Assembly: GCA_009392915.1 (NCBI GenBank)
Contig: CP045477.1
Location: 775,633-839,632, forward strand
DNA: 64,000 nt
Direction of reading: 5' to 3'
Source of the DNA: Candidatus Forterrea multitransposorum CG_2015-17_Forterrea_25_41
Lineage (GTDB): Archaea; Iainarchaeota; Iainarchaeia; Iainarchaeales; CSSED10-239
Of this stretch, positions 2,158 to 60,222 are shown piece by piece. The notes beneath the pieces are model-generated. The model saw only the letters and a list, made by a program, of their open reading frames with translations, was not told the DNA's origin and made no database searches. Both the position numbers and the translations under genes were made by a program. Within the stretch, counting starts at the first letter, position 1; every line of letters begins with the position of its first letter.

Positions 2158-3347
2158 ATCTTTACAATCCATATAAATAAAAATACTGTAATTATTAATA
2201 AAATAGTGATTGCTGTATTTTCAGAAGAATCTGGGTTTTCTGAATTAATGCTAATTGTTTGAGTACCAATATTTTTAACATTTTCTCCTTCTAAATAATT
2301 AATAGTAAAATTTAAGGTGTGTTCTCCTTCTTTATATGTTTTAATTATAAATGGTATTTCAACAACATCTTTTGGTCTAATTAGATTTATTTTTTCTTGA
2401 GATACAATTATTTCTCCATTAAAATAAGGTTTGATATATACATCTGTAACTTCTTTTTCTGAATTGTTAATAATAATTAAATGACCAGTTTGTTCTTCTT
2501 TTGGTACAATTATTTTTTGAATATCTATATGATTTTCTAAAGCATTTTCTTTTTCTGAAATAGTTATTATTTTTTGTTTAATTTTTTTTGTAATTTCTTG
2601 GTTAAAAACATCTGTGTATTTAAGATTTGCAATAGGTGTTGCAAATGTGTTATTTGAATCTGTTTTTACAAAATAATCTATTTTTATTTCACTTTGAGCT
2701 TTAAGCAATCCTTCAAAACTTGTTTCTCCAGAAACATTTTCTAAATTAGAATTATATATGAATAAATTAGATGCATTTTTAAGTTCAATAAAAGTATCTG
2801 CATAACCACTATTTCTTACGTGAATAGTAATAGGTATTAAAGTATTAACATATGCTGTAGAAGGTGCATCTTGATAAAAATCTTCATCAGTTATTTTTGA
2901 ATTATAATAAGTTCCAATTAAACTATCTGAATCTATAATTAACCTTGGTAAAAAATTATTTTCAATACAAATTTCTAATTTGTTATCAATTGAATCAAAT
3001 TTTCCTAATTTTATAATATTTTTTTCTTTAATCTCTTTATCAATTATTTCTGTAATATTTTTATCATTTACTTTAATGTTGATTATAACTCCTTTAGAAA
3101 TAGGTATATAATTTTTAAGCATTAATTGAAAATAAGTTTCTGAAAACTCATCAGATTTTAAATTAAAAGTAAAATCTTTACAAAAACTACTTCCTTTTTC
3201 AACAACAATATCACCTTTATCTAATATATTTAAAGTGGTTTCATCAATAGTTGTTGCTAATAATGAGTTTGAAATTAAGATAATTCCAATAATTAATAAA
3301 AAATACTTATAATTCATATATACTTCACAATATATTATATCTAACAA
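2154..3347 (-). CDS. Secreted/cell-surface protein, Sec signal peptide plus C-terminal TM anchor with very short tail (possible sorting-signal substrate)
   Basis: N-terminal hydrophobic h-region MNYKYFLLIIGIILISNSLLA. The C-terminus ...SENTAITILLIITVFLFIWIVKI is a TM helix plus a 2-residue tail. Confidence 0.4.
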   Translation of the reverse strand: MLDIIYCEVYMNYKYFLLIIGIILISNSLLATTIDETTLNILDKGDIVVEKGSSFCKDFTFNLKSDEFSETYFQLMLKNYIPISKGVIINIKVNDKNITEIIDKEIKEKNIIKLGKFDSIDNKLEICIENNFLPRLIIDSDSLIGTYYNSKITDEDFYQDAPSTAYVNTLIPITIHVRNSGYADTFIELKNASNLFIYNSNLENVSGETSFEGLLKAQSEIKIDYFVKTDSNNTFATPIANLKYTDVFNQEITKKIKQKIITISEKENALENHIDIQKIIVPKEEQTGHLIIINNSEKEVTDVYIKPYFNGEIIVSQEKINLIRPKDVVEIPFIIKTYKEGEHTLNFTINYLEGENVKNIGTQTISINSENPDSSENTAITILLIITVFLFIWIVKI

Positions 3348-3366: not shown

Positions 3367-6300
3367 TTAATGTCTTAATATTTTTTTCTTTTTCTCAGCT
3401 ATGGTTTTTTCTTTCTTTTTATTACCCAACCTTAAATAAGCATATAAACTAACGAATAAAACTACAATAATTGTAATTAAAATATATTGTGTTTTTGTTG
3501 AATTTTTCGAAACAGGATTTGTTTGTTTTAAAACATAAATTACATCAAGATATTTTTCATCATCATAATTTGTTTTTGCAAAATTAAGTGTTTCAACATC
3601 ATATTCTTTTTTTTGATAATCTATTATTTCTTTTTTAGCATCATCTTTTATTTCAATTAAACCAGAGGTTAAATTATCATAATCTGATTTTATTTTTTCA
3701 ATTCTATTTATTGTTTCTAAAGAAATGGCATTAAGTGCACCTTTGTAGTCTTTTTCATTATATTTTTCATCAAAGTTAGATAATTCTTTATTGAAAAGTA
3801 CACTTTCTAAAAAAGCATAATTTTTTTCTAATCTTTTTGCATCGTTTTCTGTAATTCCAGAAAAATACCCAATTGAATAAAGATCAGTTAAAGTATATGT
3901 TTCATATAACAAATATGTTTTTGTAATTATTTCATTAATTTTGTCTTCTTCTAAATTATTTGTTATTGGGTTAATGTAATAATAAAGTTCTTCAGCTTTT
4001 TCTTTTAGTTTCTGATTAATTATATCTTTAATTTCTGTAATGTTTTTATCTTTACTTAATAAATCTAAATCTATGTTTTCTAAATTATTTTCATTAATAA
4101 TTTCATTAAGTTCTTTAAATTCAGCAATTTCTAAACTTTTAGTGTCGTTTTGTAAGTCCTTTTCTCTTTTTTTAATATCTATTAATAACTGTATTAAATC
4201 TTTTTCTGCTAAAACCATATTTTGATATTTATTACTTTCTATTTTTTCTAATTTGTTTTCTTCAAAAGAAGTTAGTTCTTTTTGATAAATCTCATTTAAA
4301 GTAATTAAATAATTTTCTTCAATAATTTGATAATGTTTGTTTTTTTCTAATAGTTTTTGTAAGGTGTTATAATAACTGTAAATAGTTTCTATTTCATTAA
4401 TACTATATTCTTCAGAATATGGTTTGTCCAACAAATATTTCAATTCTTTAATTGATTCTTTTTGAATATCTAAAAATCTAGTGTTTCTAAGCTCTTCTGC
4501 TGCTAAAATTATTTCTCTAATTTCTTCATAAACTTTATTCTTTTCAATTAATGTTTTTAAAACAAATTCTAAAACTTCATCTTTTTTAATCTCTATATTA
4601 TAAATTAAGTTTCCATTTTCTTCAAATAAAGTAATTTCTTTATTATTTTTATAAAAAGTATTAATTTCGTTTTCTTTAGTTTCTTTAATAATTAATTTTT
4701 GATTAATTTTTTCAAAAAATTTATTCTTTAAAGAAATATTTGTTGTTGTAATAAATTTATCACTACTTATTTCTTCAATATTTTTAGATAGGTTATTTTC
4801 AAATACAGGTCCATAGACATAAAATTCATTTTCTTTTTTTGTATAATAATAAATATTATTTTCTTCTATAATAACATCTTCATTTTTAGATATAAATCCA
4901 TCAATAAATAAAAGTGAATCATATATTCCTTCTACTTCGTTTTCAATTGTAATTTTAATAATACTTTCTTTTAATGATAAATAAATTATTTCATAATTTA
5001 TATTTTTATTATTCTCATAATCTACTAAGAAATAATTTTTACCAGGATATATAGTGTGTATCTTTATTTGTGTTTTATTAATAAGTAACCCAGGATCTTT
5101 AGATACTAGGTTTAAATAATTATTTTCTATTTCAATATTTAAAATAATTTCAGAGAAGTTATTTATTAATTCAAAATAATATTTATCATCTATTTTTTTA
5201 ATAGTGTAGTTTTTATTTTCTTGAATGATCTTTTTAATGATTAAATCTATTTCTCTTTCAATATTATTTATTTTTTCTTGATTTTCATTAATATTTATAA
5301 TTAACTCAACATTATTTTTTTGTTTTATTTCCTTTACATCTTTTTCAATTTCACTAATTATTTCATAATTTTCTTCAAGTTTATTTTCAACATATATTTC
5401 ATTAATTTTATTTTCTATTTCTTTAATTCTTTTTTTAATTATAATTATTTTTTCATTACTTTCAAGTTTATAATTTATGTTGTTAATGTGTTCTAAACAA
5501 TCTTCTTCTGTTGAATAAATATATAATTCATAATCTTTAACTTCTTCAATTTCGCTTTCAATAACACTATAAATTAACTCTTGGCAATTTTGTATTTCAT
5601 TTGCATTTTTTATTTTTTCACAATAATTTAATTTTTCAAGAAGATTGTCACTTTCTTTATATTGACTAATTAATCTTGATATATATAGATTACTTTGTTC
5701 TTCTAGATTTTCAACTAAAATATCACAAGCAAACAGTTGAGAGTTTTCTAACTTTTCTTTTTCAACAATTTCTTGGTTTTGTAAAATTTCTAAATTAATT
5801 TCTTTTAATTCTGATAAATATTTTCCAAAAGTAATTGTTTTATTTTCAAAGTAATTTTTTTGTTTTAAATAATAATTATATTTTTCAGTAGTTAAATATT
5901 CTTTATTTTTTTCAATTTCTTTTTGATAATCTTCTATTTTATTATAAATTACATCTAAATTTTCAGTTATTCTATTATTAATAATTATAAATTCTGTAAC
6001 TAATGATTTTTCTTTTCCAACCAACTTATCCATTAAAATATAAAAATTATATCCATCTAGTTTATCTAAATTATAGTTTATGTTTCTTAAATCTTCTATG
6101 TTAGATAATTTTTTATATACAAAATTATTTATTCTTAAAATTTCAGGAAGATTAATTTCTTGTGAATTAATTTCTTTTTCATAGATTTGTAAATAATACA
6201 AAGTTAGATCAGATACATTTTCTTTTGCAAGATAGGTTTCTCTAAAACCTAATTCTTTAGAATATACATGTAATTCTTTAATTTCTTGATTTACTTTTGA

Positions 6301-6855
6301 TAAATAACTTTCATTTTCTATTTGTTTTTTCATAAAATTAATATTATCATTTAATAATATATAATCTTGAAATATTTCTTCTTCAGGAATTAGGTTAACT
6401 TCTTGCTGTTCTAAAAATAAGGTATAATCAATAATAAGATACATGCTTTTTTTAGTTGCATTATCAACATATGAAAAGGTTTTAGAAAAAAGGTCCATTA
6501 CATCATTATAATTATCTAAAATTGTTTTGATGTTCTCTTTTCTACACCCTTCATTCAATAAATCTAGTTCTTTTTTAGTAAGTGTATAATAATAATGACT
6601 GGATGCTAAGTAATTTTTATAAGTATCTATATTTTGACTTAAAGAAAGAGGTATTTTGTTATTTTTTTCAATAGATAATTTTTCAATTTCAGTAAAACAT
6701 TTATTTTGAGAAGTACAATCATCAATAGAAGTAGAGGAATAATGAGTTAAAGCAAGACAAGCTTGCTTTTCTCTAGTGGTTATAAATTCAAGGCAACCTG
6801 AAAGGCTTACTAGTAAAATCAATAAAAAATATATGTATATTTTTTTATCAATCAA
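3367..6855 (-). CDS. Large (1162 aa) coiled-coil-rich surface protein with N-terminal signal/lipobox-like LSGC and C-terminal TM anchor
   Basis: N-terminus MIDKKIYIYFLLILLVSLSGC, long E/K/N-rich heptad-like body, C-terminal TM ILITIIVVLFVSLYAYL followed by a K-rich tail. Confidence 0.4.
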   Translation of the reverse strand: MIDKKIYIYFLLILLVSLSGCLEFITTREKQACLALTHYSSTSIDDCTSQNKCFTEIEKLSIEKNNKIPLSLSQNIDTYKNYLASSHYYYTLTKKELDLLNEGCRKENIKTILDNYNDVMDLFSKTFSYVDNATKKSMYLIIDYTLFLEQQEVNLIPEEEIFQDYILLNDNINFMKKQIENESYLSKVNQEIKELHVYSKELGFRETYLAKENVSDLTLYYLQIYEKEINSQEINLPEILRINNFVYKKLSNIEDLRNINYNLDKLDGYNFYILMDKLVGKEKSLVTEFIIINNRITENLDVIYNKIEDYQKEIEKNKEYLTTEKYNYYLKQKNYFENKTITFGKYLSELKEINLEILQNQEIVEKEKLENSQLFACDILVENLEEQSNLYISRLISQYKESDNLLEKLNYCEKIKNANEIQNCQELIYSVIESEIEEVKDYELYIYSTEEDCLEHINNINYKLESNEKIIIIKKRIKEIENKINEIYVENKLEENYEIISEIEKDVKEIKQKNNVELIININENQEKINNIEREIDLIIKKIIQENKNYTIKKIDDKYYFELINNFSEIILNIEIENNYLNLVSKDPGLLINKTQIKIHTIYPGKNYFLVDYENNKNINYEIIYLSLKESIIKITIENEVEGIYDSLLFIDGFISKNEDVIIEENNIYYYTKKENEFYVYGPVFENNLSKNIEEISSDKFITTTNISLKNKFFEKINQKLIIKETKENEINTFYKNNKEITLFEENGNLIYNIEIKKDEVLEFVLKTLIEKNKVYEEIREIILAAEELRNTRFLDIQKESIKELKYLLDKPYSEEYSINEIETIYSYYNTLQKLLEKNKHYQIIEENYLITLNEIYQKELTSFEENKLEKIESNKYQNMVLAEKDLIQLLIDIKKREKDLQNDTKSLEIAEFKELNEIINENNLENIDLDLLSKDKNITEIKDIINQKLKEKAEELYYYINPITNNLEEDKINEIITKTYLLYETYTLTDLYSIGYFSGITENDAKRLEKNYAFLESVLFNKELSNFDEKYNEKDYKGALNAISLETINRIEKIKSDYDNLTSGLIEIKDDAKKEIIDYQKKEYDVETLNFAKTNYDDEKYLDVIYVLKQTNPVSKNSTKTQYILITIIVVLFVSLYAYLRLGNKKKEKTIAEKKKKILRH

Positions 6856-6867
6856 CTTTTTTATCTC

Positions 6868-7218
6868 CTAATATCTTACAATTCCTTCTGCATTTATTGT
6901 TACTATTTTAAATTTAATATTAGTTTTTAAAAGAATAGATAATATTGCACTATGTTCTTTTCCGCTTCCAGAATGTATATTAAGTTCAATATCTTTTAAA
7001 TCTTTAGGCATTTGATTTTCAATATCATCAACAATTTCTGAAAAACCTTTTCTTGGATCAATAATTATCCAGTTTACTTTTTTTGAACAAGTAAATTTAT
7101 CTTGTGCCCATTCGTTTGAGATTAAATAAACTTTATCGTAATCAGTGTTATCTATTATGTGTGCTACTTGTCCCCAAGTTCCTTTTCCTGTACTTAGTAT
7201 TCCTAAAAACATTTTCAT
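6868..7218 (-). CDS. Hypothetical small alpha/beta protein (116 aa)
   Basis: ORF with tight coupling to the flanking genes (start directly abuts the upstream wHTH gene). No family recognised. Confidence 0.3.
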   Translation of the reverse strand: MKMFLGILSTGKGTWGQVAHIIDNTDYDKVYLISNEWAQDKFTCSKKVNWIIIDPRKGFSEIVDDIENQMPKDLKDIELNIHSGSGKEHSAILSILLKTNIKFKIVTINAEGIVRY

Positions 7219-7536
7219 TTATTCACCACCGTTTAAATCAAATTTTTCTTTAGATTCTATATAGATACTAACAAAATCTTTTCCTTTATCTGTAAGATAA
7301 TAAACTTCTTCTTCATCTAGTTGGATTTTTTTGATTAATTTTGTCTGTATTAAAGTATCTAATATATTATATAGAATAGATACATTTTTAAAATATATAT
7401 TTACCTTTAATTCTTCAATTTTAGGTGGTTTTTTATTAATTTCAACTAAAACAGCCATATGTTCTTTAGATTGTATAATTTTTAGAAGTTCTGGTTCTTT
7501 TTCAACCATTTCAATTAATTTTTCTTTTTCTGTCAT
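7219..7536 (-). CDS. Small winged-helix-like DNA-binding protein (putative transcription regulator)
   Basis: About 105 aa. Helix-rich N-terminus and a wing-like segment (YYLTDKGKDFV) typical of wHTH regulators. Overlaps the elp3 3' end by 26 nt. Confidence 0.3.
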   Translation of the reverse strand: MTEKEKLIEMVEKEPELLKIIQSKEHMAVLVEINKKPPKIEELKVNIYFKNVSILYNILDTLIQTKLIKKIQLDEEEVYYLTDKGKDFVSIYIESKEKFDLNGGE

Positions 7537-22851: not shown

Positions 22852-22986
22852 GGGTTAATCACCTTTTTTTAAATAAGAATTAAAAATGTATTTCTCTAAT
22901 ATATATTATATATATAAATATGTTTTTATATGTTGTTTCTAATTAAAATCAAAAGGTTTTTATTCTTTTTAAATAATGTTTTATGT

Positions 22987-24123
22987 ATGATTTCTTTAAA
23001 TTATAAATCTATCTCACCTTTAATTTCTGTAATTTTATTAATTGTTGTATCTATTGCTTTTATAGGTGTAATTACCAATTGGAGTAAAAGTTTTGTTATA
23101 ACGAATTCAGAAAAAGTAGATTTAATAAAAACAAATAATTCTTTAGATCAATTTATTGTTATAGATTCTTTTTATGATTCTGAAGAAAATTCAAGTATTA
23201 TTTTAAAAAATAACGCTAATAAAAATATTGTGCTTGAAAATTATAAATTTATAAACGGGGAAGGTGAGTTTTATAATCAAGAATTTGTAATTTCTGGAGA
23301 TGATGTTTTAAATAAAGGTAATTTATTAAAAATAGATTTAATTTGCTTTCCATCAAATAATTTAGATATTCTTTTTAAAACAACAGATGGAGATTATTTT
23401 AAAGTTAATTTAAAAAAATCTATTTTAAATATAAATTATTGTCATAATGATTTTAAAAATCAAAAAGTATATTCTTTTGAAGAATTGTTAGAAAAGAATC
23501 TTTTAGATGTAAATAGTTATTATTTAGATGTAAATGGAGATTTAAATTTACCTGAAATAGATGATTTTATTATAAAAACAAAATTTAAATTAGATTCAGT
23601 CTCTGGCTATCAAACATTAATTTCATATAAATATTCTGGTGTTTCAGGTTATGGTTCAGGACAAAGAGGTGGATTTAAATTTATGGTTCTTCCAAGCGGT
23701 AATTTTGCAATTGTAGGTAGTCAAAATGGTGGTTCTTTATGGTGGGGTTATTCTGGAGGAGATCCTGGACAAACACCCCCTTTAGTTTCAAATAAGTATT
23801 ATGATTTAATTTATCATAAAAATGGTCGTTTAATTAATTTGTGTCTTAAAGATAATATAGATTATAATTCTTTTTTTTGTAACGAACCTTGGTATTATCC
23901 TTATTATGATATTACAAACATCTATTATAGTGACAATCCAACATATAATTATAAATCAATAATTGGTGCTACAAATTATGGTTTAGAAAATACTTTTTTA
24001 GATTATTTTAATGGATCTGTTGAATATATTGAATTGTATGAATATTCTGAAGATAATAATATATCTTCAGTAAACAACCTTCCTTTAAATAATTATATTT
24101 TTAAAATAGATTTAACAAAATAA
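22987..24123 (+). CDS. Class III signal peptide (archaeal pilin-like) protein with LamG/ConA-like lectin domain
   Basis: N-terminus MISLNYKSISPLISVILLIVVSIAFIGVITNW (charged/Ser then hydrophobic helix). C-terminal region (...GGFKFMVLPSGNFAIVGSQNGGSLWWGYSGG...YDLIYHKNGRLINLCL) resembles the LamG beta-sandwich. Confidence 0.45.
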   Translation: MISLNYKSISPLISVILLIVVSIAFIGVITNWSKSFVITNSEKVDLIKTNNSLDQFIVIDSFYDSEENSSIILKNNANKNIVLENYKFINGEGEFYNQEFVISGDDVLNKGNLLKIDLICFPSNNLDILFKTTDGDYFKVNLKKSILNINYCHNDFKNQKVYSFEELLEKNLLDVNSYYLDVNGDLNLPEIDDFIIKTKFKLDSVSGYQTLISYKYSGVSGYGSGQRGGFKFMVLPSGNFAIVGSQNGGSLWWGYSGGDPGQTPPLVSNKYYDLIYHKNGRLINLCLKDNIDYNSFFCNEPWYYPYYDITNIYYSDNPTYNYKSIIGATNYGLENTFLDYFNGSVEYIELYEYSEDNNISSVNNLPLNNYIFKIDLTK

Positions 24124-25156: not shown

Positions 25157-27490
25157 ATGTTTGCTATTTCAAAAAAAGGAATAAGTCCTTTAATTGTAAC
25201 TATTTTAATTGTTGTTGTAATAGTCATTATTGTGTCTGTTTTATTATTGTGGGGTAAATCTTTCACTTTAGATAATTTATCTCTTTCTGAAAGAGTTTTT
25301 GAAAAATCTAGTCTTTCTGATTTTGTTTGGCAAGATAATTTATTTGAAAAAAATTTATTTATTAAAAATACAAATTCTAAATTAGGTGCGTCAATTATTG
25401 GTTATAAAATAAATAGTTCCTTAGATTATCCTTTTTTAAATGAATATAGATACTTAGAAACTGAAGTTTATTTGGGAAAAAACAGTATTGCAACAATTCC
25501 TTTAGTTTGTATTCCTGAGAAAAATTTTACAATAGAATTAATTACTTCCAAAGATGAGTATATTACTGTGCCTGTTACTTCAAAGTCTTTTGATGCAAGT
25601 GATTGTACTTTTAAAGGAGAAATTACAAATCCTTCTGAAGATTTTAGTATAAGGTCTGGAGATTCTATTTTGTTTGACTCTTTGGCATTAAATACTTCTG
25701 GGAATGAAACTTATTTATGGGTATCTGATAAAGATGGAACTTTAAGTACTGATAAAAATTTTACAATAAGTTCTTTATCTGTAAACAATCATTTAATTAC
25801 TTTAACAATCACAGATTTTAATTCAACTATTGAAAAATCTTTGTCTGTTGTGATTCATCCTCCTTTAAGTTTAAGTATTTTATCTCCAATTGATGATTCT
25901 GGTTTTTTAGTAAACACCTCTATTGATTTTAATTCAATTATTGATAATAATTTAGGTGATTATTCTTGTAATTGGCAATCAAATCTTGATGGTTTGTTAA
26001 GCACCAATTGTATTTTTAATTCTTCAAGTTTATCTGTGGGTAATCACACTTTAACTTTAAATGTAATTGATGATGTAGGAACTAGTAGTGTTACTTCTGA
26101 TATTTTAGTTAAGAATAGTTTTACACCAATCATTAGTTCTCCTTTAGAAGATTCTATTTTTGTAGTAGGAAATAACATAAATTTAATTGGTACAACAATT
26201 AATTCTTTTGGAACTTATACTTGTTCTTGGGATTCAAATATTAATGGAAGTTTAGGTACTGGTTGTAATTTAAATGTTGATGATCTAAACATAGGTGCTC
26301 ATGAAATAACTTTAAATATAACAGATGATTTAGAAACAAAAACTGCAGTAACAACTATTGTAATTAAAGATCATTTACTTCCAGAAATAGTATCTCCTAT
26401 TGCAAGTTCTACTTCAACAGAAGGAAATACAGTTAATTTTTTAGGGAGTGCAACTAATACATATGGAAGTTACACTTGTTCTTGGGATTCAAATCTTGAT
26501 GGAAATTTAGGTGTTGGTTGTGATATAGATGTTTCTGATTTAACTTTAGGAACTCATGAAATAACTTTAAGTGTAACTGATGATTTAGAAACTGTTTCAA
26601 TTTCTCAAATTAATTCTGTGATTGTTATTGTGTATGTTGATGATTTAATTAATTTAGTTTTCAGTGATAGTGTTACAGGTTATTCTTTTTCTGGTAGTAC
26701 TTATAATTATAATGATTTATTAATTTTAAATAGTTCTAATACTGTAACTGTTACTCCGACTGGGGCTGGAACAATAACTGTAAATGGTTCTACTGTTTCC
26801 TCAGGTTCTCCATCAAGTCCTATTGATTTAAGTGATGGTACTGAAAAAACAATTACCATAGAAGTTAGTGATGTTGATAAGTATTCTAAAACTTATACTT
26901 TGAGATTAACTAAAATAGTAACTACTGGTGGAACCATAACTAATGGTACAGGTTATAGAATTCATAAATTTACTTCAAATGGATCATTTACCTCTAACAT
27001 CCCATTAACTGCTGAACTTTTAGTTATTGGTGGAGGTGGAGGTGGTGGTGGATATGATGGTGGTGGTGGTCGTGCCGGAGCGTTATATTATAGTGCATCT
27101 TATTCAATACCTTCAGGTTCAACAAATGTTGTAATTGGTGCTGGAGGTCTAGGTGTAAATTATACAAAAGGATCAGCAGGTACTGCTTCTTCTTTTGGAG
27201 CAATATCTAAAGCTGGAGGTGCTGGTGGGGCTTTAACAAGTCCTAAATCTGGTGGTGCAGGTTGTGGTGGTGGAGGAAGTGCCTTTAATGCAGGACTGGG
27301 TTATGGTCTTGAAGGTCCTGGTTGTACATATAGTATTACAGGAACTCCTGTTGTATATGGTCTAGGAGGAAGAGGAGGTAATGGAGGGAGAACAGATGGT
27401 GCTACAAACACAGGATCAGCAGGTTGGGCTGGCGGAACTAGAGGTGGTCATGGTGCTGATGGAGTTGTAATTGTTAGAATAAATTCTTAG
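25157..27490 (+). CDS. Large (777 aa) class III signal peptide surface protein: tandem Ig/PKD-like repeats plus C-terminal glycine-rich domain
   Basis: N-terminus MFAISKKGISPLIVTILIVVVIVIIVSV. Three to four modules with Y(S/T)C(N/S)W(Q/D)SN(L/I)DG...GC...L(S/N)(V/I)G.H(E/T)(I/L)TL. C-terminal 180 aa is more than 40% Gly (GGGGGGGGYDGGGGRAGA...). Confidence 0.5.
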   Translation: MFAISKKGISPLIVTILIVVVIVIIVSVLLLWGKSFTLDNLSLSERVFEKSSLSDFVWQDNLFEKNLFIKNTNSKLGASIIGYKINSSLDYPFLNEYRYLETEVYLGKNSIATIPLVCIPEKNFTIELITSKDEYITVPVTSKSFDASDCTFKGEITNPSEDFSIRSGDSILFDSLALNTSGNETYLWVSDKDGTLSTDKNFTISSLSVNNHLITLTITDFNSTIEKSLSVVIHPPLSLSILSPIDDSGFLVNTSIDFNSIIDNNLGDYSCNWQSNLDGLLSTNCIFNSSSLSVGNHTLTLNVIDDVGTSSVTSDILVKNSFTPIISSPLEDSIFVVGNNINLIGTTINSFGTYTCSWDSNINGSLGTGCNLNVDDLNIGAHEITLNITDDLETKTAVTTIVIKDHLLPEIVSPIASSTSTEGNTVNFLGSATNTYGSYTCSWDSNLDGNLGVGCDIDVSDLTLGTHEITLSVTDDLETVSISQINSVIVIVYVDDLINLVFSDSVTGYSFSGSTYNYNDLLILNSSNTVTVTPTGAGTITVNGSTVSSGSPSSPIDLSDGTEKTITIEVSDVDKYSKTYTLRLTKIVTTGGTITNGTGYRIHKFTSNGSFTSNIPLTAELLVIGGGGGGGGYDGGGGRAGALYYSASYSIPSGSTNVVIGAGGLGVNYTKGSAGTASSFGAISKAGGAGGALTSPKSGGAGCGGGGSAFNAGLGYGLEGPGCTYSITGTPVVYGLGGRGGNGGRTDGATNTGSAGWAGGTRGGHGADGVVIVRINS
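25955..26640 (+). repeat. Intragenic tandem repeat, period about 250 bp, about 2.7 copies (encodes the repeated Ig/PKD-like modules)
   Basis: Near-identical nucleotide blocks beginning tattcttgtaattggcaatcaaatcttgatgg (about 25960), tatacttgttcttgggattcaaatattaatgg (about 26215) and tacacttgttcttgggattcaaatcttgatgg (about 26468). Confidence 0.6.
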
Positions 27491-27653: not shown

Positions 27654-28724
27654 ATGAAATTTTTTACAAATAAAAACTATTCTAAAATGATAATTATACC
27701 TTTAGTTATTTTAATAATATTTATTTTAATTGCATTTATTTTTCCAGGTATTGAAAGAGGTATTGATCTTAAAGGAGGAAATCAAATAATCGTACACTAT
27801 CCTCAAGAAAAAGATTACACTTCTTTAGAAACTGCTCTTGTCGAAAAATATAATATTTCTCAAATACAAGTAAATGAAGTTAAAAGTATAAATGAATATG
27901 GACTTTTAATTGAATTCTCTCTACAACAAGATCTTGAAACTGCTAAAGCAGAAAGATCAAAATTAGATTTTACAAAAGATTTAGAAATTTTAAAACAAGA
28001 TTCTATTGTTCTATTAACTCCTTTAAAGGAAAGAGGTTTTTTAACAGAAAATGATTTAACTTCTATTCAACAAATAAATAACAAAGATGAATTAAGTTCA
28101 AAAGTTTCAGAAAACATAAGTCTTGCAAATAATAGTTTTTATAATCAAGTTACAAATCTTGTTAAATCAGAATTAGATTTAGCAGAAGATGCAAAAATAC
28201 AAACTAGAGAAATCGCACCTACTTTAGGAAAAGATTTTGTAAATAGTTCTGTAAAGGTAGGAATTGTTGCATTTTCATTATTATTAATTGTTATTCTTTT
28301 ATTCTTCAGAGAGATTGTTCCATCAGGATTAATTATTTTTGCTGTTATTTTTGATGTGTTTGCAGCTCTTGCAGGTATGGCTTTATTTAATATACCTTTA
28401 AGTTTAACCACAATTCCTGCTCTCTTAATGCTTATTGGATACTCTGTTGATACAGATATTCTTTTAACAACAAGAATTTTAAAAGATGGTAATAGAAATC
28501 CAATTGATTCAGCAAATTCTTCAATTGCAACTGGGCTTACCATGACTTTTACAACAATGGCAACTATTCTTGTAATGCTTATAATTTCTTATTTTGCACA
28601 GATGTTTATTATCTTAGAAATTTCTGTAATATTATTATGTGGTCTTGTTGGTGATGTAATTTCTACATGGCTTTTCAATGCACCTGCATTAATTAAATAT
28701 GCAAAAAGGAAACATAAAAATTAA
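27654..28724 (+). CDS. secF: Protein-export membrane protein SecF
   Basis: TM1, then GIDLKGGNQI (SecF GIDF.GG motif), a small periplasmic domain and a C-terminal 5-TM bundle. Confidence 0.7.
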   Translation: MKFFTNKNYSKMIIIPLVILIIFILIAFIFPGIERGIDLKGGNQIIVHYPQEKDYTSLETALVEKYNISQIQVNEVKSINEYGLLIEFSLQQDLETAKAERSKLDFTKDLEILKQDSIVLLTPLKERGFLTENDLTSIQQINNKDELSSKVSENISLANNSFYNQVTNLVKSELDLAEDAKIQTREIAPTLGKDFVNSSVKVGIVAFSLLLIVILLFFREIVPSGLIIFAVIFDVFAALAGMALFNIPLSLTTIPALLMLIGYSVDTDILLTTRILKDGNRNPIDSANSSIATGLTMTFTTMATILVMLIISYFAQMFIILEISVILLCGLVGDVISTWLFNAPALIKYAKRKHKN

Positions 28725-28744: not shown

Positions 28745-30376
28745 ATGAGAACATTAATAAAAAAACCAATAATTATTTTTTGGATTATTTTAATAATCAT
28801 ATCTTTAGTTTTACTTTTAACTAATGGTTTAAAATTTGGAGTTGACTTTAGTGGTGGAACTGCTTTTCAAGTAGTTTTAGAAGAATCAGTATCTTCTGAA
28901 GAACTAGCACAAGCTGCATCTATTTTAGGTAGAAGACTTGATTGGTCTGGTTCAAAAGATGCAAGAGTAACTCCTTCTGGAAGTCAATATATAACTATAC
29001 AGATTGCTGAATCTGATCCTGATGAAATTGCAAGTTTAAGAAGCGCAATTTTAAAACAAGGAAATTTTGAAGCAGTTTTAAATGGGGATGTTTTATTTTC
29101 AGGTGAAGATATAAAATCAATCTATAAAGATCCTTCTAGAGGTTATGGAATTTCAGAAGTTTCAAAAGGTGTTGACTATCAATGGTCTCTTCCGTTTTTA
29201 TTATCTCCTGATTCTGCAAAAAGATTTGCAGAAATGACTTTCCATAAATGTACTCCTACTGGAATTTCTTCTGGTTCTTTAGATGAAAGATATGAATGTG
29301 ATAAAACATATTTCTTTGTTGACAGACCAGTAGATAGTATAATATTAATAGATAACTTAACTTTTACAGAAGAAAAAGAAGTTCCTGTAATACCTGGACT
29401 TTATTCTTCTTTCTTTCCAATTGAAGATCTTTTAGATCAAGTAACTTCTCCGTATTATGTTATTGATGGAAATTTATCTGCAGAAGATGTTTCAAGTTTA
29501 ACAAAAGACTTAGAAAATTATTCTAAAGTAATTGTTTCTCCAGGAATAACTAATAACGATGTAAATTCTTTAAAAGAACTTGGTTTTAAAGTAATCTCTA
29601 TTGAAAAACAAGAAAACCTTCCATGGATTTGGAGTGTTACAGGTTTAAAATCTGTAATTTCTATAACTCCTGGAATTGCAAACATGGATGTTTCAAGTAT
29701 GGAATCTTCAAGATTTCAAACTTTTTCTCAACTTAATATTACAGGACATGCAGAATCATTAGAAGCTTCTCAAGCAAGACTTGATGATTTATTATTAATT
29801 TTAGAATCAGGTTCTCTTCCTATTGCAATTGACAGTATAAGTACAGAATCAATATCTCCATTTTTAGGAAAGCAATTTTTAAATACATCTTTGCTTATTG
29901 GTTTGTTTGCTATTCTTACTGTTGCAGTTGTTTTATTTATAAGATATAAAAGATTTAGTTTAGCTGCACCAATTATCTTAACAGCCTCAAGTGAAATTTT
30001 AATTCTTTTAGGAATACTTTCTCTTATGAGTTTTAGACTTGACTTAGCTGCTGTTGCTGGTATTTTAGCAACTATTGGAACTGGTGTTGATGATAATATT
30101 ATTATCATTGATGAACTTTTAAGAGGCAAGAAAAAAGATGAGCATGAACATCATGAAAGTCTTTTAAAGAAAATTAAGAAAGCTTTCTTTATTATGTTTG
30201 CTGCTGCTGCAACTGCTGCTGCAACAATGTTCCCAATCATTTTCTTTAGTTTAGGTCTTGGAAAATTAGTTGGTTTTGCTGTAACTATTTTAATTGGTAC
30301 TGCAATAGGTGTATTTTTAGTAAGACCAGTTTATGCACAGATTGCAAGAAAAATAGTTGCTGAAGAAGGAAAATAA
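28745..30376 (+). CDS. secD: Protein-export membrane protein SecD
   Basis: TM1, then GVDFSGGTAFQV, a large periplasmic P1 domain and a C-terminal 5-TM bundle with GVDDNIIIIDEL. Gene order secF-secD. Confidence 0.75.
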   Translation: MRTLIKKPIIIFWIILIIISLVLLLTNGLKFGVDFSGGTAFQVVLEESVSSEELAQAASILGRRLDWSGSKDARVTPSGSQYITIQIAESDPDEIASLRSAILKQGNFEAVLNGDVLFSGEDIKSIYKDPSRGYGISEVSKGVDYQWSLPFLLSPDSAKRFAEMTFHKCTPTGISSGSLDERYECDKTYFFVDRPVDSIILIDNLTFTEEKEVPVIPGLYSSFFPIEDLLDQVTSPYYVIDGNLSAEDVSSLTKDLENYSKVIVSPGITNNDVNSLKELGFKVISIEKQENLPWIWSVTGLKSVISITPGIANMDVSSMESSRFQTFSQLNITGHAESLEASQARLDDLLLILESGSLPIAIDSISTESISPFLGKQFLNTSLLIGLFAILTVAVVLFIRYKRFSLAAPIILTASSEILILLGILSLMSFRLDLAAVAGILATIGTGVDDNIIIIDELLRGKKKDEHEHHESLLKKIKKAFFIMFAAAATAAATMFPIIFFSLGLGKLVGFAVTILIGTAIGVFLVRPVYAQIARKIVAEEGK

Positions 30377-30390
30377 TTTTTCCTTTTTTC

Positions 30391-30822
30391 TTATTTTTTA
30401 AGTGTTTTAAGTATTAGATAAAGTATAACTAACCCCATTGCAAACCAAAAGAGTATGTGTGCTATTTTTGAAACACTTAAGCTTATCTTTTCTGCAAGTA
30501 AAACTAAAACTATTCTTAAAAAGTTAGCTATCCATAGCAAAAGAACACTCAAAAGTATCCACTTAATTTTACTATTTTTATTTAATGTTATTTTTGATGA
30601 GATTATTATTCCTAGATAAACAGAAATGCTAATTACTCCGCTGCATATTGGTACAAAAATAAAAGGTTCATAATTTAAGAAGTCTCCAAAAATACTTCTT
30701 ATTAAATATTCCCATAGATTAATCAATGGAGTTGCAATTGTTTTAAGAAATATAAAACTTAATAAAGTGTATATTATTGTAAAATAAATAATGAAATTAA
30801 TTGTTTTTTTATCTAGGTGCAT
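30391..30822 (-). CDS. Mini exosortase/archaeosortase-family membrane protein (143 aa)
   Basis: Four TM helices. Candidate active-site Cys in FIFVPICSGV and Arg in WIANFLRIVLVLL about 42 residues apart, matching the Cys...aNxlRv spacing of the exosortase/archaeosortase core. Confidence 0.4.
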   Translation of the reverse strand: MHLDKKTINFIIYFTIIYTLLSFIFLKTIATPLINLWEYLIRSIFGDFLNYEPFIFVPICSGVISISVYLGIIISSKITLNKNSKIKWILLSVLLLWIANFLRIVLVLLAEKISLSVSKIAHILFWFAMGLVILYLILKTLKK

Positions 30823-30884: not shown

Positions 30885-31574
30885 TTAAACAATTAGAATA
30901 TATATTAAAATAGATAAAGCACCAGCTATAAAAGTTGCAAGAAAATTAGTTTGATTATTATTAAAGATTCCTCTTCTCTCAATTGTTGCACCTATATAAC
31001 TATCAACAATAGATCCTAATATTCCACCAATAAATAAAACTATTAAAAATGTAAAAGTATAACCTACAATATAAAAATAAACTACAGAAATAAAAGATGC
31101 AATCATTGCACCTGTGATCCCAAGAAAAGTAATTCCACCATCTTCTCCTTTTTTAACTTTTTTAAAATTAGTAATAAGTCTTGGAGTTATGTTTGAAAGT
31201 TTTCCAATCTCTGAAGAAAAAGTGTCTGAAAAAGCAGCATTTATTGAAACTATACTTGCAAGAATAAATAATGAATAATCTAAAAAGTTTAATTTATCAA
31301 AAATAAAACCAATTATTACAAATATTACTGCTGCTGAACAATTTCCAATAATGTTTAAGTAATTTCTTTTTTCATGTTTTTTATTAAGTATTAAAGTTAT
31401 ACCTTCTGCTATTGCGAAAAATACAATTACATATGCAACTGCATAGATATTAATAAAGTAAAGAATTATACTTAAGAGTGCATAAATTAAAGAAATAGTA
31501 AAAAGATCGTATCCTCTTAATAGATGTAAGAAGATACCAATCAAAATAAATACTAGAAAATATAAAAAAAGCAT
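30885..31574 (-). CDS. DUF92/TMEM19-like polytopic membrane protein (CTP-transferase-like superfamily)
   Basis: About 7 TM helices. Motifs FSDTFSSEIG and GGITFLGITGAMIASF resemble the DUF92 family. Confidence 0.35.
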   Translation of the reverse strand: MLFLYFLVFILIGIFLHLLRGYDLFTISLIYALLSIILYFINIYAVAYVIVFFAIAEGITLILNKKHEKRNYLNIIGNCSAAVIFVIIGFIFDKLNFLDYSLFILASIVSINAAFSDTFSSEIGKLSNITPRLITNFKKVKKGEDGGITFLGITGAMIASFISVVYFYIVGYTFTFLIVLFIGGILGSIVDSYIGATIERRGIFNNNQTNFLATFIAGALSILIYILIV

Positions 31575-36377: not shown

Positions 36378-37307
36378 ATGATCAATTTTAAAATAAAAAA
36401 TATACCTATAAGAAAAAAAGGAGTTTTAGCTCCTATGCAAGAGTATACTCATCTTCCATTTAGACTTCTTTGCAAAGATTATGATGTAGGTTTATGTTAT
36501 ACAGAGATGGTGAATATAAATCACATTATTCAATATAAAGAAGATTTATCTAAATTAGATCTTTTAGCATCTACTGAAAAAGAATCTCCTGTATCTTTAC
36601 AGTTGTTTGGAGATTTAAGTTTAAAAAAAACAATTACTGCTGCTCATTTAATTGATAATTATAAATATTTTGATATTATTGATTTTAATTTAGGTTGTCC
36701 TTCTTTAAAAATAATTAATAGTAAGTCAGGTTCTTATAATTTAAAGCAATTAGATAAAGTTTATCCAATAATTAAAGAAATTGTTTCTACTTCTAAAAAA
36801 CCAATTACTGTAAAGGTAAGACTTGGTTTTAAAGAAGATATTTTAGAGGATATGATTAATAATTTTGAAAAGATTGGTGTTTCTGCAATTGCTGTTCATG
36901 GTAGACTTGCAAAAGAAAATTATAGTGTTCCATCAAAAATTTCAAGAGTTGAGGAAATTAAAAAAATTACTTCACTTCCAATAATTTATAATGGAGATGT
37001 TAATGAAACAAATCTTGGACATGTGAATAAGTTTTCTGGAATTATGGTTGGCAGAGAAGCTTTAGGCAATCCTTTTATCTTTAAGCAAATAGATTATTTT
37101 TCAAAAAATAATGTTCTTTTAGAAAAAGATTATTCTGATGAAGCTTTATTATCTTTTTTAGAATATGTTAAAGAATATCCAATTTCTTTTTCTAAACTAA
37201 AAGTATCTTTAATTCCTTTTTTTAAAGGTAAACAAGGTTCTGCAAGAATAAGAGAATTATTATCCAAATCTAAAAATCTTAAAGAAATATTAAATATATT
37301 AAAATAG
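36378..37307 (+). CDS. dus: tRNA-dihydrouridine synthase
   Basis: LAPMQEYTHLPFRLLCKDYDVGLCYTEMV, FDIIDFNLGCPSLKI, GVSAIAVHGR are Dus-family TIM-barrel motifs. Confidence 0.8.
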   Translation: MINFKIKNIPIRKKGVLAPMQEYTHLPFRLLCKDYDVGLCYTEMVNINHIIQYKEDLSKLDLLASTEKESPVSLQLFGDLSLKKTITAAHLIDNYKYFDIIDFNLGCPSLKIINSKSGSYNLKQLDKVYPIIKEIVSTSKKPITVKVRLGFKEDILEDMINNFEKIGVSAIAVHGRLAKENYSVPSKISRVEEIKKITSLPIIYNGDVNETNLGHVNKFSGIMVGREALGNPFIFKQIDYFSKNNVLLEKDYSDEALLSFLEYVKEYPISFSKLKVSLIPFFKGKQGSARIRELLSKSKNLKEILNILK

Positions 37308-38013
37308 CTATAAGTATTATCCATAAAATTATTTTGTAATTTTTAATAATTTCTTTAAAAATAAAAAGTATTCCGTCAATAATTCCCATAAAAAAATCTT
37401 TTAAATAACTACCTAATTTTTTATCTTCTTTAACTTCTGAAAAAACTTCTTTAATAAGTTCTATTTTAGTTTTTTCTTTTTTTGGAATTATTTCAAAATT
37501 ATTAACGTCTCCAGTAATTGCATCTATCTTAAGTTTAAACTTATCTAGTTTAACTTTCCAATTAGGAACATATATTTGTTCAATACCGCTTAAGGAGATT
37601 TGATCTTTTAAAACATTGTGCTTATAAACCAAATATTTCATAATTGTTTCTTCAGCTTCTTCTTTTGTAACAATTTTTTTTTTAAGATTAATCTGAATTT
37701 GCTCTGTTTTAGGAGCTTCTAAATTTTCTTTAATGATTGGTTTTGATATTTTAAAAATATCAATAACTTTTTCATTAATTTGATTATTTATAGAATTAAG
37801 TGCAATTTGGTTTGAGATTCTATTAAACTTCTCATTTTTATTAATTAAAATATCGTAGAAACAGACCCAATAAGGTGTAATAGTAAGATAAAGATTTTCT
37901 TTCTTTATCTCATATTTATGACCTTTTTTTTTAAGAGCCGCTTGAAATATATCTAATGCTTGTCTTGGCTCTAATTTTATTGGAAACCTTTTTTCAGTAA
38001 CTGTTATTGGCAT
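37279..38013 (-). CDS. C-terminally tail-anchored protein, co-transcribed immediately upstream of sepF
   Basis: Soluble 220 aa followed by a single C-terminal TM (IILWIILIAILIYLIFL). Stop is adjacent to the sepF start (38013/38014). Confidence 0.3.
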   Translation of the reverse strand: MPITVTEKRFPIKLEPRQALDIFQAALKKKGHKYEIKKENLYLTITPYWVCFYDILINKNEKFNRISNQIALNSINNQINEKVIDIFKISKPIIKENLEAPKTEQIQINLKKKIVTKEEAEETIMKYLVYKHNVLKDQISLSGIEQIYVPNWKVKLDKFKLKIDAITGDVNNFEIIPKKEKTKIELIKEVFSEVKEDKKLGSYLKDFFMGIIDGILFIFKEIIKNYKIILWIILIAILIYLIFL

Positions 38014-38364
38014 TTATTTCATTTTTTTAATAATTTTTACTTTTTCTGGTACCAATAATAATTTTGTTTTAGAAATCATTGCAAGATCTCCACCTTTGTC
38101 AGTAACATACATTTTTAATTGTCCAACAAATTGTTTTGCTCTTTGTGGATTTCTTTTAGAAATTCCTTCTATGTCTAAAATAACAAAGTTTCTTTCTTTT
38201 AATTCTTTTATTACAATTTCAACTTCATTATTTGATTGTAAACTAATTGGTTTTACATAGAAATCTACATCTTCTGGTACATCTTCTACATCCATGTTGT
38301 TTAAGAAATCGTCAATATCTATTTCTTCTTTTTTACCTGTAAACATTTTATCTAAAAAGGCCAT
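38014..38364 (-). CDS. sepF: Cell division protein SepF-like (FtsZ membrane anchor)
   Basis: SepF core pattern: EVEIVIKELKERNFVILDIEGISKRNPQRAKQFVGQLKMYVTDKGGDLAMISKTKLLLVP, plus an N-terminal amphipathic segment. Confidence 0.6.
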   Translation of the reverse strand: MAFLDKMFTGKKEEIDIDDFLNNMDVEDVPEDVDFYVKPISLQSNNEVEIVIKELKERNFVILDIEGISKRNPQRAKQFVGQLKMYVTDKGGDLAMISKTKLLLVPEKVKIIKKMK

Positions 38365-56477: not shown

Positions 56478-57212
56478 TTATTTTTTCTTTTTAATTATTG
56501 TTTTTTTCTTTTCTTTTTTAAAGGAAATTGGTTTTTTATTTTTAAAATAAGTTTCTTTAATTTTTTCATAAAGTTCTTTTTTAAAAGCATATGCGTATTG
56601 TTTTACTTCTTGACTAATTTTTATATTTCCTTTTTCAAAATCTATTCTTTTAAAAATATTTGTAATTTTTCCATTCTGGTCTGATTTAAATGAATATACA
56701 TTAAGGTTTTGAGGATTTATAAATAACCAATTTCTTCCTTCAAGTCCTCCATATTCTCCAATTCTATCTTTTATAAAAACTCTTGTAAGTTTGCCATCAA
56801 TTTTTACTTTTGTAGTCTGTAAGGTATCTGATTTTAAGGCTCTTAAAAAACCTTTATATGTCTGGTTACAAGTTTGTTCAAATTGTAATGATTGAATATT
56901 ATTTTTAAGGAAAAATCCTTTGTCTAGATTTCTTAATTGAGAAATTGTACTTCTGTTTACATCTTTATTTCGGTATACTTTTACATAATTTGAAAGTAAA
57001 AGATCTCTTATAACTTCTCTTTTATTTTCAACATTATTGCCTTTTAAAACTCTAGAGGTTATTTCAATAATTTCTTTTTTTTGTTCTTTTGTAAAATTAT
57101 TTATAAAATCTTTAAAAATTTTACTTCTAGGCATTCCAATGTTAATTGTCATGGAATCATTTTTTTTTAAAAATATTAATTCTAAGATTTTATTAAATTC
57201 TGCATCTATCAT
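56478..57212 (-). CDS. Hypothetical protein with K-rich C-terminus
   Basis: ORF only. Confidence 0.25.
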   Translation of the reverse strand: MIDAEFNKILELIFLKKNDSMTINIGMPRSKIFKDFINNFTKEQKKEIIEITSRVLKGNNVENKREVIRDLLLSNYVKVYRNKDVNRSTISQLRNLDKGFFLKNNIQSLQFEQTCNQTYKGFLRALKSDTLQTTKVKIDGKLTRVFIKDRIGEYGGLEGRNWLFINPQNLNVYSFKSDQNGKITNIFKRIDFEKGNIKISQEVKQYAYAFKKELYEKIKETYFKNKKPISFKKEKKKTIIKKKK

Positions 57213-57315
57213 TGTTTTTCAAATTTTTGTAAGTCTATTATTAATATCTATTAAAAAGAAAGATATAAAAATAAAATGGTCTTATAAATTATTAAAAATT
57301 ATAAATATATTTTAT

Positions 57316-58191
57316 ATGGCTCCAAAAAAGAAAGAAAAAATAAGTTTTGAAGAAGAACTATATAGATTATTCTTGCCTTTTACAAAAAATATTCAGTCAG
57401 ATGATTTTGAAGAGGCATTAAGTCAAGCAGACATAACTGTAGATATAGATGTTTATTTTTCTAAAAATTTATTTTTTGCATTATTTATACTTTTTATGAT
57501 ATTAATTTTTGGAACTGTTGCAAGTAATTTAGTTCCAGATATTATAAGCTTAAAGTTAGTCGTAATTTTAGCATTATCTATTTTCATTGTATTTGTGGGA
57601 TATGCAGTTTTTAATCCTTATTTAATTATTGGAAATAAAGTTACAAGTATTAGGAATGCATTACCTTTAGCAATTATTGGAATGTCAAGTGTAGCTGAAT
57701 CAGGTGCACCTCCAATTGCAATTTTTTCAACAAAGACAATAAAAGATAAAAGTCAATATTTAGATAAAGAGTTTACAAAAATTACTTATTATGTTAATAA
57801 TTTAGGAATTTCACTTCTTGAAGCAATTGATATTTCTGCAAGAAAAACTCCTTCTTATGATCTTAAAAAGTTTTTACTAGATTTAAAATCAAATATTGAA
57901 GCTGGTGGATCTTTACCTGAATTTATGAAAAAAAAAGCAGAGCATGCAAGATTTCAATATAATCTTTTATTAAATAACCAAAATCAAAAAGCAGAAACTT
58001 TTGGTGATATTTATTCTGCAATTGTTGTTGCAGGTCCATTATTTTTATTTTCTGGTATTATGCTTTTAGGTATGGTTGGTGGTGGTGTTGCAGGTTTAAG
58101 TATAAACACTGTATTACAGATTGGAATATTTTTAATGGTTCCAATAATTAATATTTCATTTATAGCTGTTTTAAATTTAGTTAGTGGTTAG
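57316..58191 (+). CDS. Type II secretion system F-domain membrane protein (TadB/TadC/FlaJ-like pilus platform), copy 1
   Basis: One T2SSF-like cytoplasmic domain flanked by TM helices. Preferred start is the ATG at 57316 (MAPKKKEK), which avoids overlapping the opposite-strand gene. Confidence 0.5.
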   Translation: MAPKKKEKISFEEELYRLFLPFTKNIQSDDFEEALSQADITVDIDVYFSKNLFFALFILFMILIFGTVASNLVPDIISLKLVVILALSIFIVFVGYAVFNPYLIIGNKVTSIRNALPLAIIGMSSVAESGAPPIAIFSTKTIKDKSQYLDKEFTKITYYVNNLGISLLEAIDISARKTPSYDLKKFLLDLKSNIEAGGSLPEFMKKKAEHARFQYNLLLNNQNQKAETFGDIYSAIVVAGPLFLFSGIMLLGMVGGGVAGLSINTVLQIGIFLMVPIINISFIAVLNLVSG

Positions 58192-58198
58192 ATAAAAT

Positions 58199-59050
58199 AT
58201 GGATTTGAAAAAAGAATTTGGAATAACTCTTTCAGAAAAACAAAAGTTTTTCGTAGATTATGTTATTTATGGTTCTGTAGGTTCAATTGTTTTCTTTGTT
58301 TTATTAATGAATACTAAATTTTTAGTTTTTTCAATTTTTCCTTTACTTGCAGCTGTAGGTATTGCTGCAAGAATATACACTGCAAGAATTAAATCTTATG
58401 AAAGAAATCTATATGTGTTTTTAGATGATCTAAAAGATCTTCTTCAAGGTGGTATGAATATTGTAACTGCTATTGAAGTTGCATCTAGACACGATTATGG
58501 TCATTTAAATGCACCTATTAAAAGAATTGCAGCACAAATAAAGATTGGTGTTCCTTTTGATGTTGCTTTAAATGATGTTTTTGGAAATATTGATAGTGCA
58601 GTATTTGCACAAATTACACAAATCATTTCTGAAACTACAAAAGTTGGTGGAAATATAATTAAAATTTTCGCATCAATTTCAGATTATGTTAAAACAATTA
58701 ATGATATGGTAGAAGAAAGAAAATCTAAAACTTTTTCTACAGTTTTTTCAAGTTACTTTATGTTTTTTGTTTTTATTGCTATTATTTTAATTATACAAAT
58801 AGTTTTTTTGCCAATGCTTAGTGGTAGTACAGTTTCATTAACTGGAGAAGGAGCAACAAATGCATCTTCAATGTCTGATGTTAATTTTAATAAATACTTT
58901 TTATATTTAATTGTTATTCAAGGTTTATTTGCAGGTCCAACAATTGGTTTAATTTCCGAAAATAATTTTGTTGCAGGGATACGGCATTCAATTATTCTTG
59001 TAGGGGTTTCTGTTCCTATATATGTAATTGTTTCAGCAATTTTCTTATAA
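58199..59050 (+). CDS. Type II secretion system F-domain membrane protein (TadB/TadC/FlaJ-like pilus platform), copy 2
   Basis: T2SSF-like domain (NIVTAIEVASRHDYGHLNAPIKRIAAQIKIGVPFDVALNDVFG) and 3 TM helices. Lies 7 nt downstream of copy 1, in a different frame. Confidence 0.55.
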   Translation: MDLKKEFGITLSEKQKFFVDYVIYGSVGSIVFFVLLMNTKFLVFSIFPLLAAVGIAARIYTARIKSYERNLYVFLDDLKDLLQGGMNIVTAIEVASRHDYGHLNAPIKRIAAQIKIGVPFDVALNDVFGNIDSAVFAQITQIISETTKVGGNIIKIFASISDYVKTINDMVEERKSKTFSTVFSSYFMFFVFIAIILIIQIVFLPMLSGSTVSLTGEGATNASSMSDVNFNKYFLYLIVIQGLFAGPTIGLISENNFVAGIRHSIILVGVSVPIYVIVSAIFL

Positions 59051-59147
59051 TCTTAATTTGTATTTTAAAGAAGATAGGTTTATATATGTTATAGTTTATA
59101 TATTATTATAATTTAAGAAAAATATATATATATTAAAATGAAAAAAA

Positions 59148-59609
59148 ATGAAAAATAAAAAAGCATTATCTCCATTGATTGCAACCATTCTTTTAGTTGC
59201 TGTTGCTTTATCTTTAGCAGGGATATTATATTCTTGGTCTTCTCAAAATTTTAGAGATACCACAACAAGTGTTTCAGATACTTCTGCAGAATGGATTGAT
59301 TGTAGTAATGTTAATATATATATAGATTCTGGCTGTTCTTATACATCTTTAGATGGATTTGGAACTTTAATATTATTTGATAGATCTACAGTTGAAATTG
59401 ATCAAAATATTGTTTTAACAATTATTGATGCAGATGATGAGATTGCAAGTGTTGAAATTGAACCAAATTTTACTGGTAATGCAATGTCATTAGCTTCAAC
59501 TTTAAATGCTATTGATGGTATTAAAGGTCTTGCAACTCCTCTTAAGAGAGTACAAGCACATGTTAAAAATTGTCCTGATAGAGTATCATATATCTCTAGA
59601 TGTAGTTAA
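59148..59609 (+). CDS. Archaeal type IV pilin-like protein (class III signal peptide), paralogue 1
   Basis: MKNKKALSPLIATILLVAVALSLAGILYSW, four Cys (two predicted disulfides), ends RCS. Confidence 0.65.
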   Translation: MKNKKALSPLIATILLVAVALSLAGILYSWSSQNFRDTTTSVSDTSAEWIDCSNVNIYIDSGCSYTSLDGFGTLILFDRSTVEIDQNIVLTIIDADDEIASVEIEPNFTGNAMSLASTLNAIDGIKGLATPLKRVQAHVKNCPDRVSYISRCS

Positions 59610-59652
59610 TTTTTAAAAAAATTATAAATATGAAAATATAAGGTGATATAAA

Positions 59653-60132: not shown

Positions 60133-60222
60133 ATGTATATAATAAAAAGAGACTTTCTTTATAATTATAAAGAAAGTTTTTCTTTTTTTATTTTTTTTTA
60201 AATTATAAATTTTGAAATTTTT

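Follow-up and report, generated by a model that had tools for sequence, protein, structure and literature searches.

Among the membrane enzymes gathered by the exosortase/archaeosortase signature domain (TIGR04178, IPR026392), a catalytic triad of Cys, Arg and His has been suspected from near-perfect conservation (Haft 2023, bioRxiv 10.1101/2023.06.07.544157). For the Haloferax volcanii archaeosortase ArtA, experiments have shown Cys173, Arg214 and Arg253 to be critical (PMC9263693); its active site faces the outside of the cell, and substrates lose their C-terminal helix and have a lipid attached (PMC6098224, PMC9263693). ArtA is described by a profile of 271 positions and reads a signal made of PGF, a transmembrane (TM) helix and a basic cluster. 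Several curated families are much smaller, with profiles of 150 positions for ArtD (TIGR04175), 153 for ArtE (TIGR04124), 167 for pacearchaeosortase (NF033505), 168 for both XrtX (NF046081) and XrtY, and 187 for XrtG. Taxonomically, archaeosortases have been described as found in a subset of the Euryarchaeota (2018 review, PMC6098224).

The locus described here lies in a 64,000-nucleotide stretch of Candidatus Forterrea multitransposorum DNA (hereafter the window; very AT-rich, with a GC content of 0.21–0.28), where positions 30391–30822 (- strand) hold an ATG-to-stop open reading frame of 143 codons. Its product (NCP79712.1, GW835_04055, on an 839,632-bp contig) was deposited in GenBank as a “hypothetical protein”, and its close homologs are named “exosortase/archaeosortase family protein” in IMG. 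The TIGR04178 profile matches this product with 32.5 bits (E-value 7.8e-8, curated cutoff 23 bits) over residues 58–138 of 143 and profile positions 5–92 of 97. An earlier note, written from the letters of this DNA, had proposed an exosortase/archaeosortase core here and named this same profile as the check, and the result supports the enzyme assignment. Together with the homologs and the structural model presented below, it identifies the 143-aa protein as a genuine member of the exosortase/archaeosortase superfamily, unusually small and from a clade outside the curated subfamily models.

A search of 5.8 billion proteins returned 18 clusters of homologs (136–146 aa, 52–96% identity to the 143-aa protein), and the nearest genome records, MAGs of Candidatus Iainarchaeum or Diapherotrites, belong to the DPANN phylum Iainarchaeota. 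Across 19 aligned close homologs of the same length range, 30 columns are invariant, including Cys60, Asn100, Arg103 and His122. Further away, 72 relatives, nearly all 140–237 aa long, emerged when 1.84 billion cluster representatives were searched with a profile, and an alignment of 68 distant small relatives (down to ~20% identity) keeps Cys60, Gly62, Asn100 and Arg103 invariant and His122 in at least 90% of sequences. TIGR04178 is matched by 65 of these 68 relatives, many of which also match the ArtD (54/68), ArtE (36/68), pacearchaeosortase, XrtX or ArtA models, although weakly: the relatives inspected individually fall far below the ArtD and ArtE cutoffs (e.g., 49–50 bits vs. 125).

The 143-aa protein thus carries, within its TIGR04178 domain, the near-invariant Cys, Arg and His of the family, a mapping onto the profile that rests on the matched span having no conserved Cys, Arg or His other than Cys60, Arg103 and His122. 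The putative nucleophile Cys60 (codon 30643–30645, - strand) is invariant and sits in the motif VPICSG(V) at the predicted outer start of helix 58–80, and the putative catalytic Arg103 (30514–30516, - strand), likewise invariant, sits in ANFLRIV, three residues after the invariant Asn100. The putative third triad residue, His122 (30457–30459, - strand), is found seven residues into helix 115–142. The Cys of PICSG and the Arg of ANFLRIV had been singled out in the earlier note as a catalytic pair about 42 residues apart; they are 43 apart, and the pairing is borne out by their invariance within the matched domain in both close and distant alignments. This spacing compares with 41 residues in H. 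volcanii ArtA (Cys173 to Arg214; PMC9263693), a protein about twice as long, whose Arg253 has no equivalent identified in the 143-aa protein. His122 was absent from the earlier description of the protein.

Two readings of the reading frame itself were ruled out: a spurious or chance ORF, by the 18 homolog clusters with their narrow length range, 52–96% identity and 30 invariant columns, and a truncated pseudogene, by the uniform length of the homologs and the invariant triad. Because the family is tight and uniform in length, and because its neighbors are fully conserved, the 143-aa protein is not a truncation of a longer enzyme.

The AlphaFold2 model of the protein (built on the 68-sequence alignment) is compact, helical and very confident (pLDDT 96.6, pTM 0.88), with helices at residues 5–28, 30–48, 58–80, 86–110 and 115–142. 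Since it carries E38, R42 and D47, helix 30–48 is read as amphipathic rather than membrane-spanning, which leaves the four TM helices counted previously and, on the outer side, the amphipathic one. Lysines cluster at the N-terminus, at residues 77–87 and at the C-terminus; these clusters fit cytoplasmic segments, and therefore a four-TM topology with both termini inside. Based on the AlphaFold2 helix boundaries and the positive-inside rule applied to these lysines, Cys60 would lie at the outer start of TM2, and Arg103 (in TM3) and His122 (in TM4) would each be ~7 residues away from the outer end of their helix. The protein is hence predicted to be, as expected for the family, polytopic with its conserved residues at the extracytoplasmic face of the membrane. 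Structure comparison found no solved structure resembling the model, and no solved structure of the exosortase/archaeosortase family was found for comparison.

Broadly speaking, the 143-aa protein resembles other TIGR04178 proteins in nearly the whole of the 97-position domain, in the near-invariant Cys, Arg and His and in being a polytopic membrane protein, but differs in that the domain makes up almost the entire protein, with just one TM helix and the amphipathic helix ahead of it. A Pfam search (E-value up to 10), exosortase family included, returned no match. The ArtA and EpsH models did not match either, and at 143 aa and four TM helices the protein falls outside the 8-TM EpsH/XrtA or ArtA class. 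The named subfamilies that score highest are themselves small, namely heimdallarchaeosortase (NF045528, 199 positions; 21.2 bits vs. a cutoff of 130) and XrtX (19.2 bits vs. 170), yet both scores are far below cutoff and the catalytic core alone aligns. Pacearchaeosortase, likewise small and from a DPANN lineage, aligns weakly over residues 16–137 (14.7 bits vs. 80) and has its host in a phylum other than the Iainarchaeota. ArtD and ArtE are comparable in size class and architecture, but neither model matches the 143-aa protein at E-values up to 10, and no ArtD- or ArtE-type sorting signal was identified. Overall, the protein reaches the curated cutoff of none of ArtD, ArtE, ArtH, pacearchaeosortase, heimdallarchaeosortase, XrtX and XrtY, and we therefore place it in an unclassified clade.

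The small size as such is not new. The “half the usual size” of the earlier description holds relative to the 8-TM EpsH and ArtA enzymes, but not as something unprecedented, since the curated small families are comparable and the window protein stands at the small end of their range. Literature searches on small archaeosortase subfamilies returned nothing relevant, and no biochemical data were found there on any small archaeosortase.

The genomic surroundings of the gene are highly stable. A gene for a DUF92/TIGR00297 integral membrane protein (30885–31574, - strand; Pfam PF01940, E-value 1.3e-35) lies upstream in the same orientation, 62 bp away; the gap is 38–62 bp in the homologous contigs where it was measured, and this adjacency is kept in all homologous contigs with gene tables or ORFs read (52–96% identity). 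On the other side, SecF (27654–28724, + strand) and SecD (28745–30376, + strand), both recognized by NCBIfam models, converge on the sortase gene, with 14 bp between the stops of SecD and the sortase. The order S15, S3Ae, DUF92, sortase and convergent SecF-SecD recurs in all homologous contigs examined at 52–96% identity, with one exception in which a single gene is inserted between sortase and SecD (L007). As the entire block is syntenic across a narrow clade, we draw no functional conclusion from the proximity of DUF92 or SecDF; a literature search for a link between DUF92 and sortases returned nothing relevant, and no client gene stands next to the sortase gene in these contigs, which all represent one syntenic block.

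By analogy with described members of the family, the 143-aa protein is probably a minimal archaeosortase, i.e., an intramembrane cysteine endopeptidase/transpeptidase. A client would be exported in a Sec-dependent manner and then held in the membrane by its C-terminal helix, after which the small archaeosortase would bind, inside the membrane, the C-terminal signature and TM helix of one or more such surface proteins. Cys60, helped by Arg103 and His122, would attack the peptide chain at the outer boundary of the membrane, and either water or a lipid amine, the latter having been proposed for ArtA, would then resolve the acyl-enzyme. The C-terminal helix would thereby be removed and probably exchanged for a lipid anchor, giving a lipid-anchored surface protein. 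What the data show for the 143-aa protein is its place in the family, the conserved triad and the compact four-TM model; the position of the triad at the outer face, catalysis, lipid transfer and the identity of the client are inferred.

The search for clients pointed to a single protein of the window. In a census of all window ORFs of at least 80 aa, one protein combines a signal peptide, a C-terminal helix and a two-residue tail: a 387-aa protein (NCP79735.1) encoded at 2154–3317 (- strand), in which a signal peptide is followed by about three CARDB-like beta-sandwich domains, then by a variable linker and, at the C-terminus, by a TM helix that ends in ...LFIWIVKI. The earlier note had quoted this tail correctly but had written of surface proteins of this kind in the plural, and had extended the coding span to 3347; homologs place the start at the ATG at 3317 (MNYKYF...) and not at the TTG at 3347. 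When the census was taken over the window and related loci, two type-I proteins were found, encoded at 2154–3317 and 3367–6855, and all remaining matches were polytopic membrane proteins. The 387-aa protein is the only candidate substrate of the sortase in the window; that it is in fact the substrate is a tentative proposal, to which we give clearly less than even weight, and the true clients may be encoded beyond the window.

The second type-I protein is the immediate neighbor of the first. This 1162-aa surface protein (3367–6855, - strand) carries a lipobox signal (LSGC) that is conserved, and its C-terminal TM helix is followed by a basic cytoplasmic tail of 21–22 residues (...KKKKILRH), likewise conserved; no Pfam or NCBIfam domain was detected in it, and the double anchoring by lipobox and TM helix is unusual. 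A gene of ~1160 aa stands directly upstream of the 387-aa gene in every homologous contig examined, and in all homologous contigs the pair is preceded by two small genes (6868–7536, - strand, in the window), which encode a 116-aa protein with no detected domain and a 105-aa protein with weak matches to PadR/HxlR-like winged-helix proteins. This suggests a conserved four-gene unit, flanked by ELP3-like radical SAM and MutL/MutS genes. As the two larger genes are always adjacent, the 1162-aa and 387-aa proteins may form a two-component surface complex.

It follows that the C-terminal helix of the 387-aa protein could simply be a permanent TM anchor, its sequence constrained by helix packing against the 1162-aa partner and not by the sortase, with the clients of the sortase encoded elsewhere in the ~0.84-Mb genome, a reading that we consider almost as likely as not. 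It accounts for the constant pairing of the two genes behind the 105-aa and 116-aa genes and for the conserved TM helix and cytoplasmic tail of the partner (...ILRH), the tail being apparently retained, and it sits well with the window covering less than 8% of the contig, so that most candidate clients are out of sight. When the two tails were compared with hhalign, no shared signal emerged (probability 15%, 5 columns), and tails that are unrelated are neutral as to packing. Against this reading, the sortase needs some client, and the 387-aa protein alone in the window has a fitting architecture and a short tail.

The C-terminal tail of the 387-aa protein is strongly conserved. The last 22 residues (ENTAITILLIITVFLFIWIVKI; 2157–2222, - strand) form a putative sorting signal or specific TM anchor, with a family consensus of NTAITILIIITIxLFIWIVKI. 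Mean pairwise identity within the 387-aa family is 0.72 in the tail, against 0.51 in the body, 0.31 in the linker and 0.32 in the N-terminal signal peptide, and of the 309 equally long windows in the body only 5 attain the value of the tail. Given that the signal peptide drifts to this extent, the C-terminal helix is under sequence-specific constraint, beyond mere hydrophobicity. It has been argued that such constraint on a helix is to be expected when an intramembrane enzyme reads it (Haft 2023, bioRxiv 10.1101/2023.06.07.544157).

One could accordingly imagine a one-to-one system, in which the 387-aa protein is the single client of the sortase and its tail a new, proline-free signal cleaved near the ENTA junction; we consider this rather unlikely as a whole. 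In its favor, the tail ranks among the most conserved 22-residue windows of a protein whose signal peptide varies freely, a variable linker precedes it, and the type-I topology places the junction at the membrane face where Cys60 is predicted to be. The two families are alike in their narrow distribution (18 homolog clusters for the sortase, 15 for the 387-aa family), both are represented on the 839,632-bp contig and in sample SRR7299214, and homologs of both occur on 331,976-bp records that probably represent one contig. Conserved TM residues and once-per-genome targets are, moreover, known from real sorting systems (Haft 2023, bioRxiv 10.1101/2023.06.07.544157).

Against such a dedicated pair, co-occurrence is uninformative within a narrow clade, where both may be core genes, and 27 kb separate the sortase gene from the 387-aa gene, as opposed to the single-target JDVT-CTERM system, in which enzyme and target genes are adjacent (Haft 2023, bioRxiv 10.1101/2023.06.07.544157). 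JBBISB010000001.1 (L005), a 671-kb Iainarchaeum contig from SRR11582162, carries a sortase homolog (P0005), and no 387-aa-family member from this contig or from its 59-kb Logan version was among the database matches, nor did look-ups for one from the same sample turn any up, which makes it a possible counter-example to an obligate pair. The tail also departs from known signals: compared with the PGF, TM helix and basic cluster of ArtA substrates, it has no PGF, Pro or Gly and a single Lys in place of the Arg/Lys cluster. Two tails of the 387-aa family (C-terminal 35–45 residues) searched against NCBIfam at E-values up to 10 had no match, and hence none to a CTERM model (PGF-, PEF-, PIP-, VPXXXP- and others), and the tail of the 1162-aa protein had two weak matches, neither of them to a sorting-signal model. 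At the level of full-length candidate proteins (E-value up to 0.01), CTERM models did not match either, so that no established cognate signal was found in the window.

The tail is in addition confined to one protein family, as no second family bearing it was found in the window, in related loci or in a metagenome-wide pattern scan. That scan, for back-translated FIWIVKI followed by a stop, gave 58 DNA matches, one of which ends a real ORF (in L025, an 89% homolog); the remaining matches were short frames attributable to chance, and coverage was limited, as the collection missed known JGI members. When the 40-residue tail alignment was used as a profile query, a 50-aa fragment was the sole match; the search is uninformative on other families, because the known 387-aa family itself was not recovered. 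The boldest version of the idea is that of the smallest functional type of archaeosortase (~143 aa), dedicated to the 387-aa client through a previously undescribed signal without basic cluster or proline, made up of an ENTA junction, a TM helix read by its sequence and a ...LFIWIVKI-COOH end; we regard it as distinctly unlikely. Finally, a degenerate or repurposed archaeosortase relic, or a non-coding or spurious ORF, in either case without peptidase function, is highly improbable: the very small size, the scores below all subfamily cutoffs and the “hypothetical protein” label would fit, but the Cys, Arg, His and Asn100 are invariant at 52–96% identity and nearly so in the 68 distant relatives, the homologs are uniform in length and their contigs in gene order, and the AlphaFold2 fold is very confident.

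Several other membrane or surface proteins of the window were recorded along the way. A 244-aa protein encoded within 37279–38364 (- strand) lacks a signal peptide and has a C-terminal TM helix (...IILWIILIAILIYLIFL), i.e., a tail-anchored architecture; its gene is directly downstream of SepF (38014–38364, - strand), a pair conserved in two related loci (L001 and L002), and the protein may be a SepF-associated membrane anchor. In a type IV pilus-like cluster (57037–60666, + strand), three small pilin-like genes, which encode class III signal peptides (KKAISPLIATILL...), come after those for two membrane proteins of the T2SSF/PilC type. Pilin-type N-terminal signals are also present on two large proteins, one of 777 aa (25157–27490, + strand) with PKD, cadherin-like and Gly_rich_2 domains and one of 397 aa (22930–24123, + strand) with a weakly UpsA-like N-terminus; as neither has a C-terminal TM helix, they are not sortase-type clients.

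For the family, the enzyme is one more member, as yet uncurated, of a known group; its identification corrects a “hypothetical protein” label in GenBank and leaves the knowledge of the family unchanged. A well-conserved 143-aa archaeosortase in the Iainarchaeota adds a DPANN lineage, DPANN already having curated small archaeosortases, and with a length near that of the shortest curated models the protein would offer a convenient minimal scaffold for structural and mechanistic work on the family. The 387-aa substrate is a plausible and reasonable lead: if this protein were indeed the client, its tail would define a new sorting signal, and the protein itself would probably be a major one on the surface of these uncultivated archaea.
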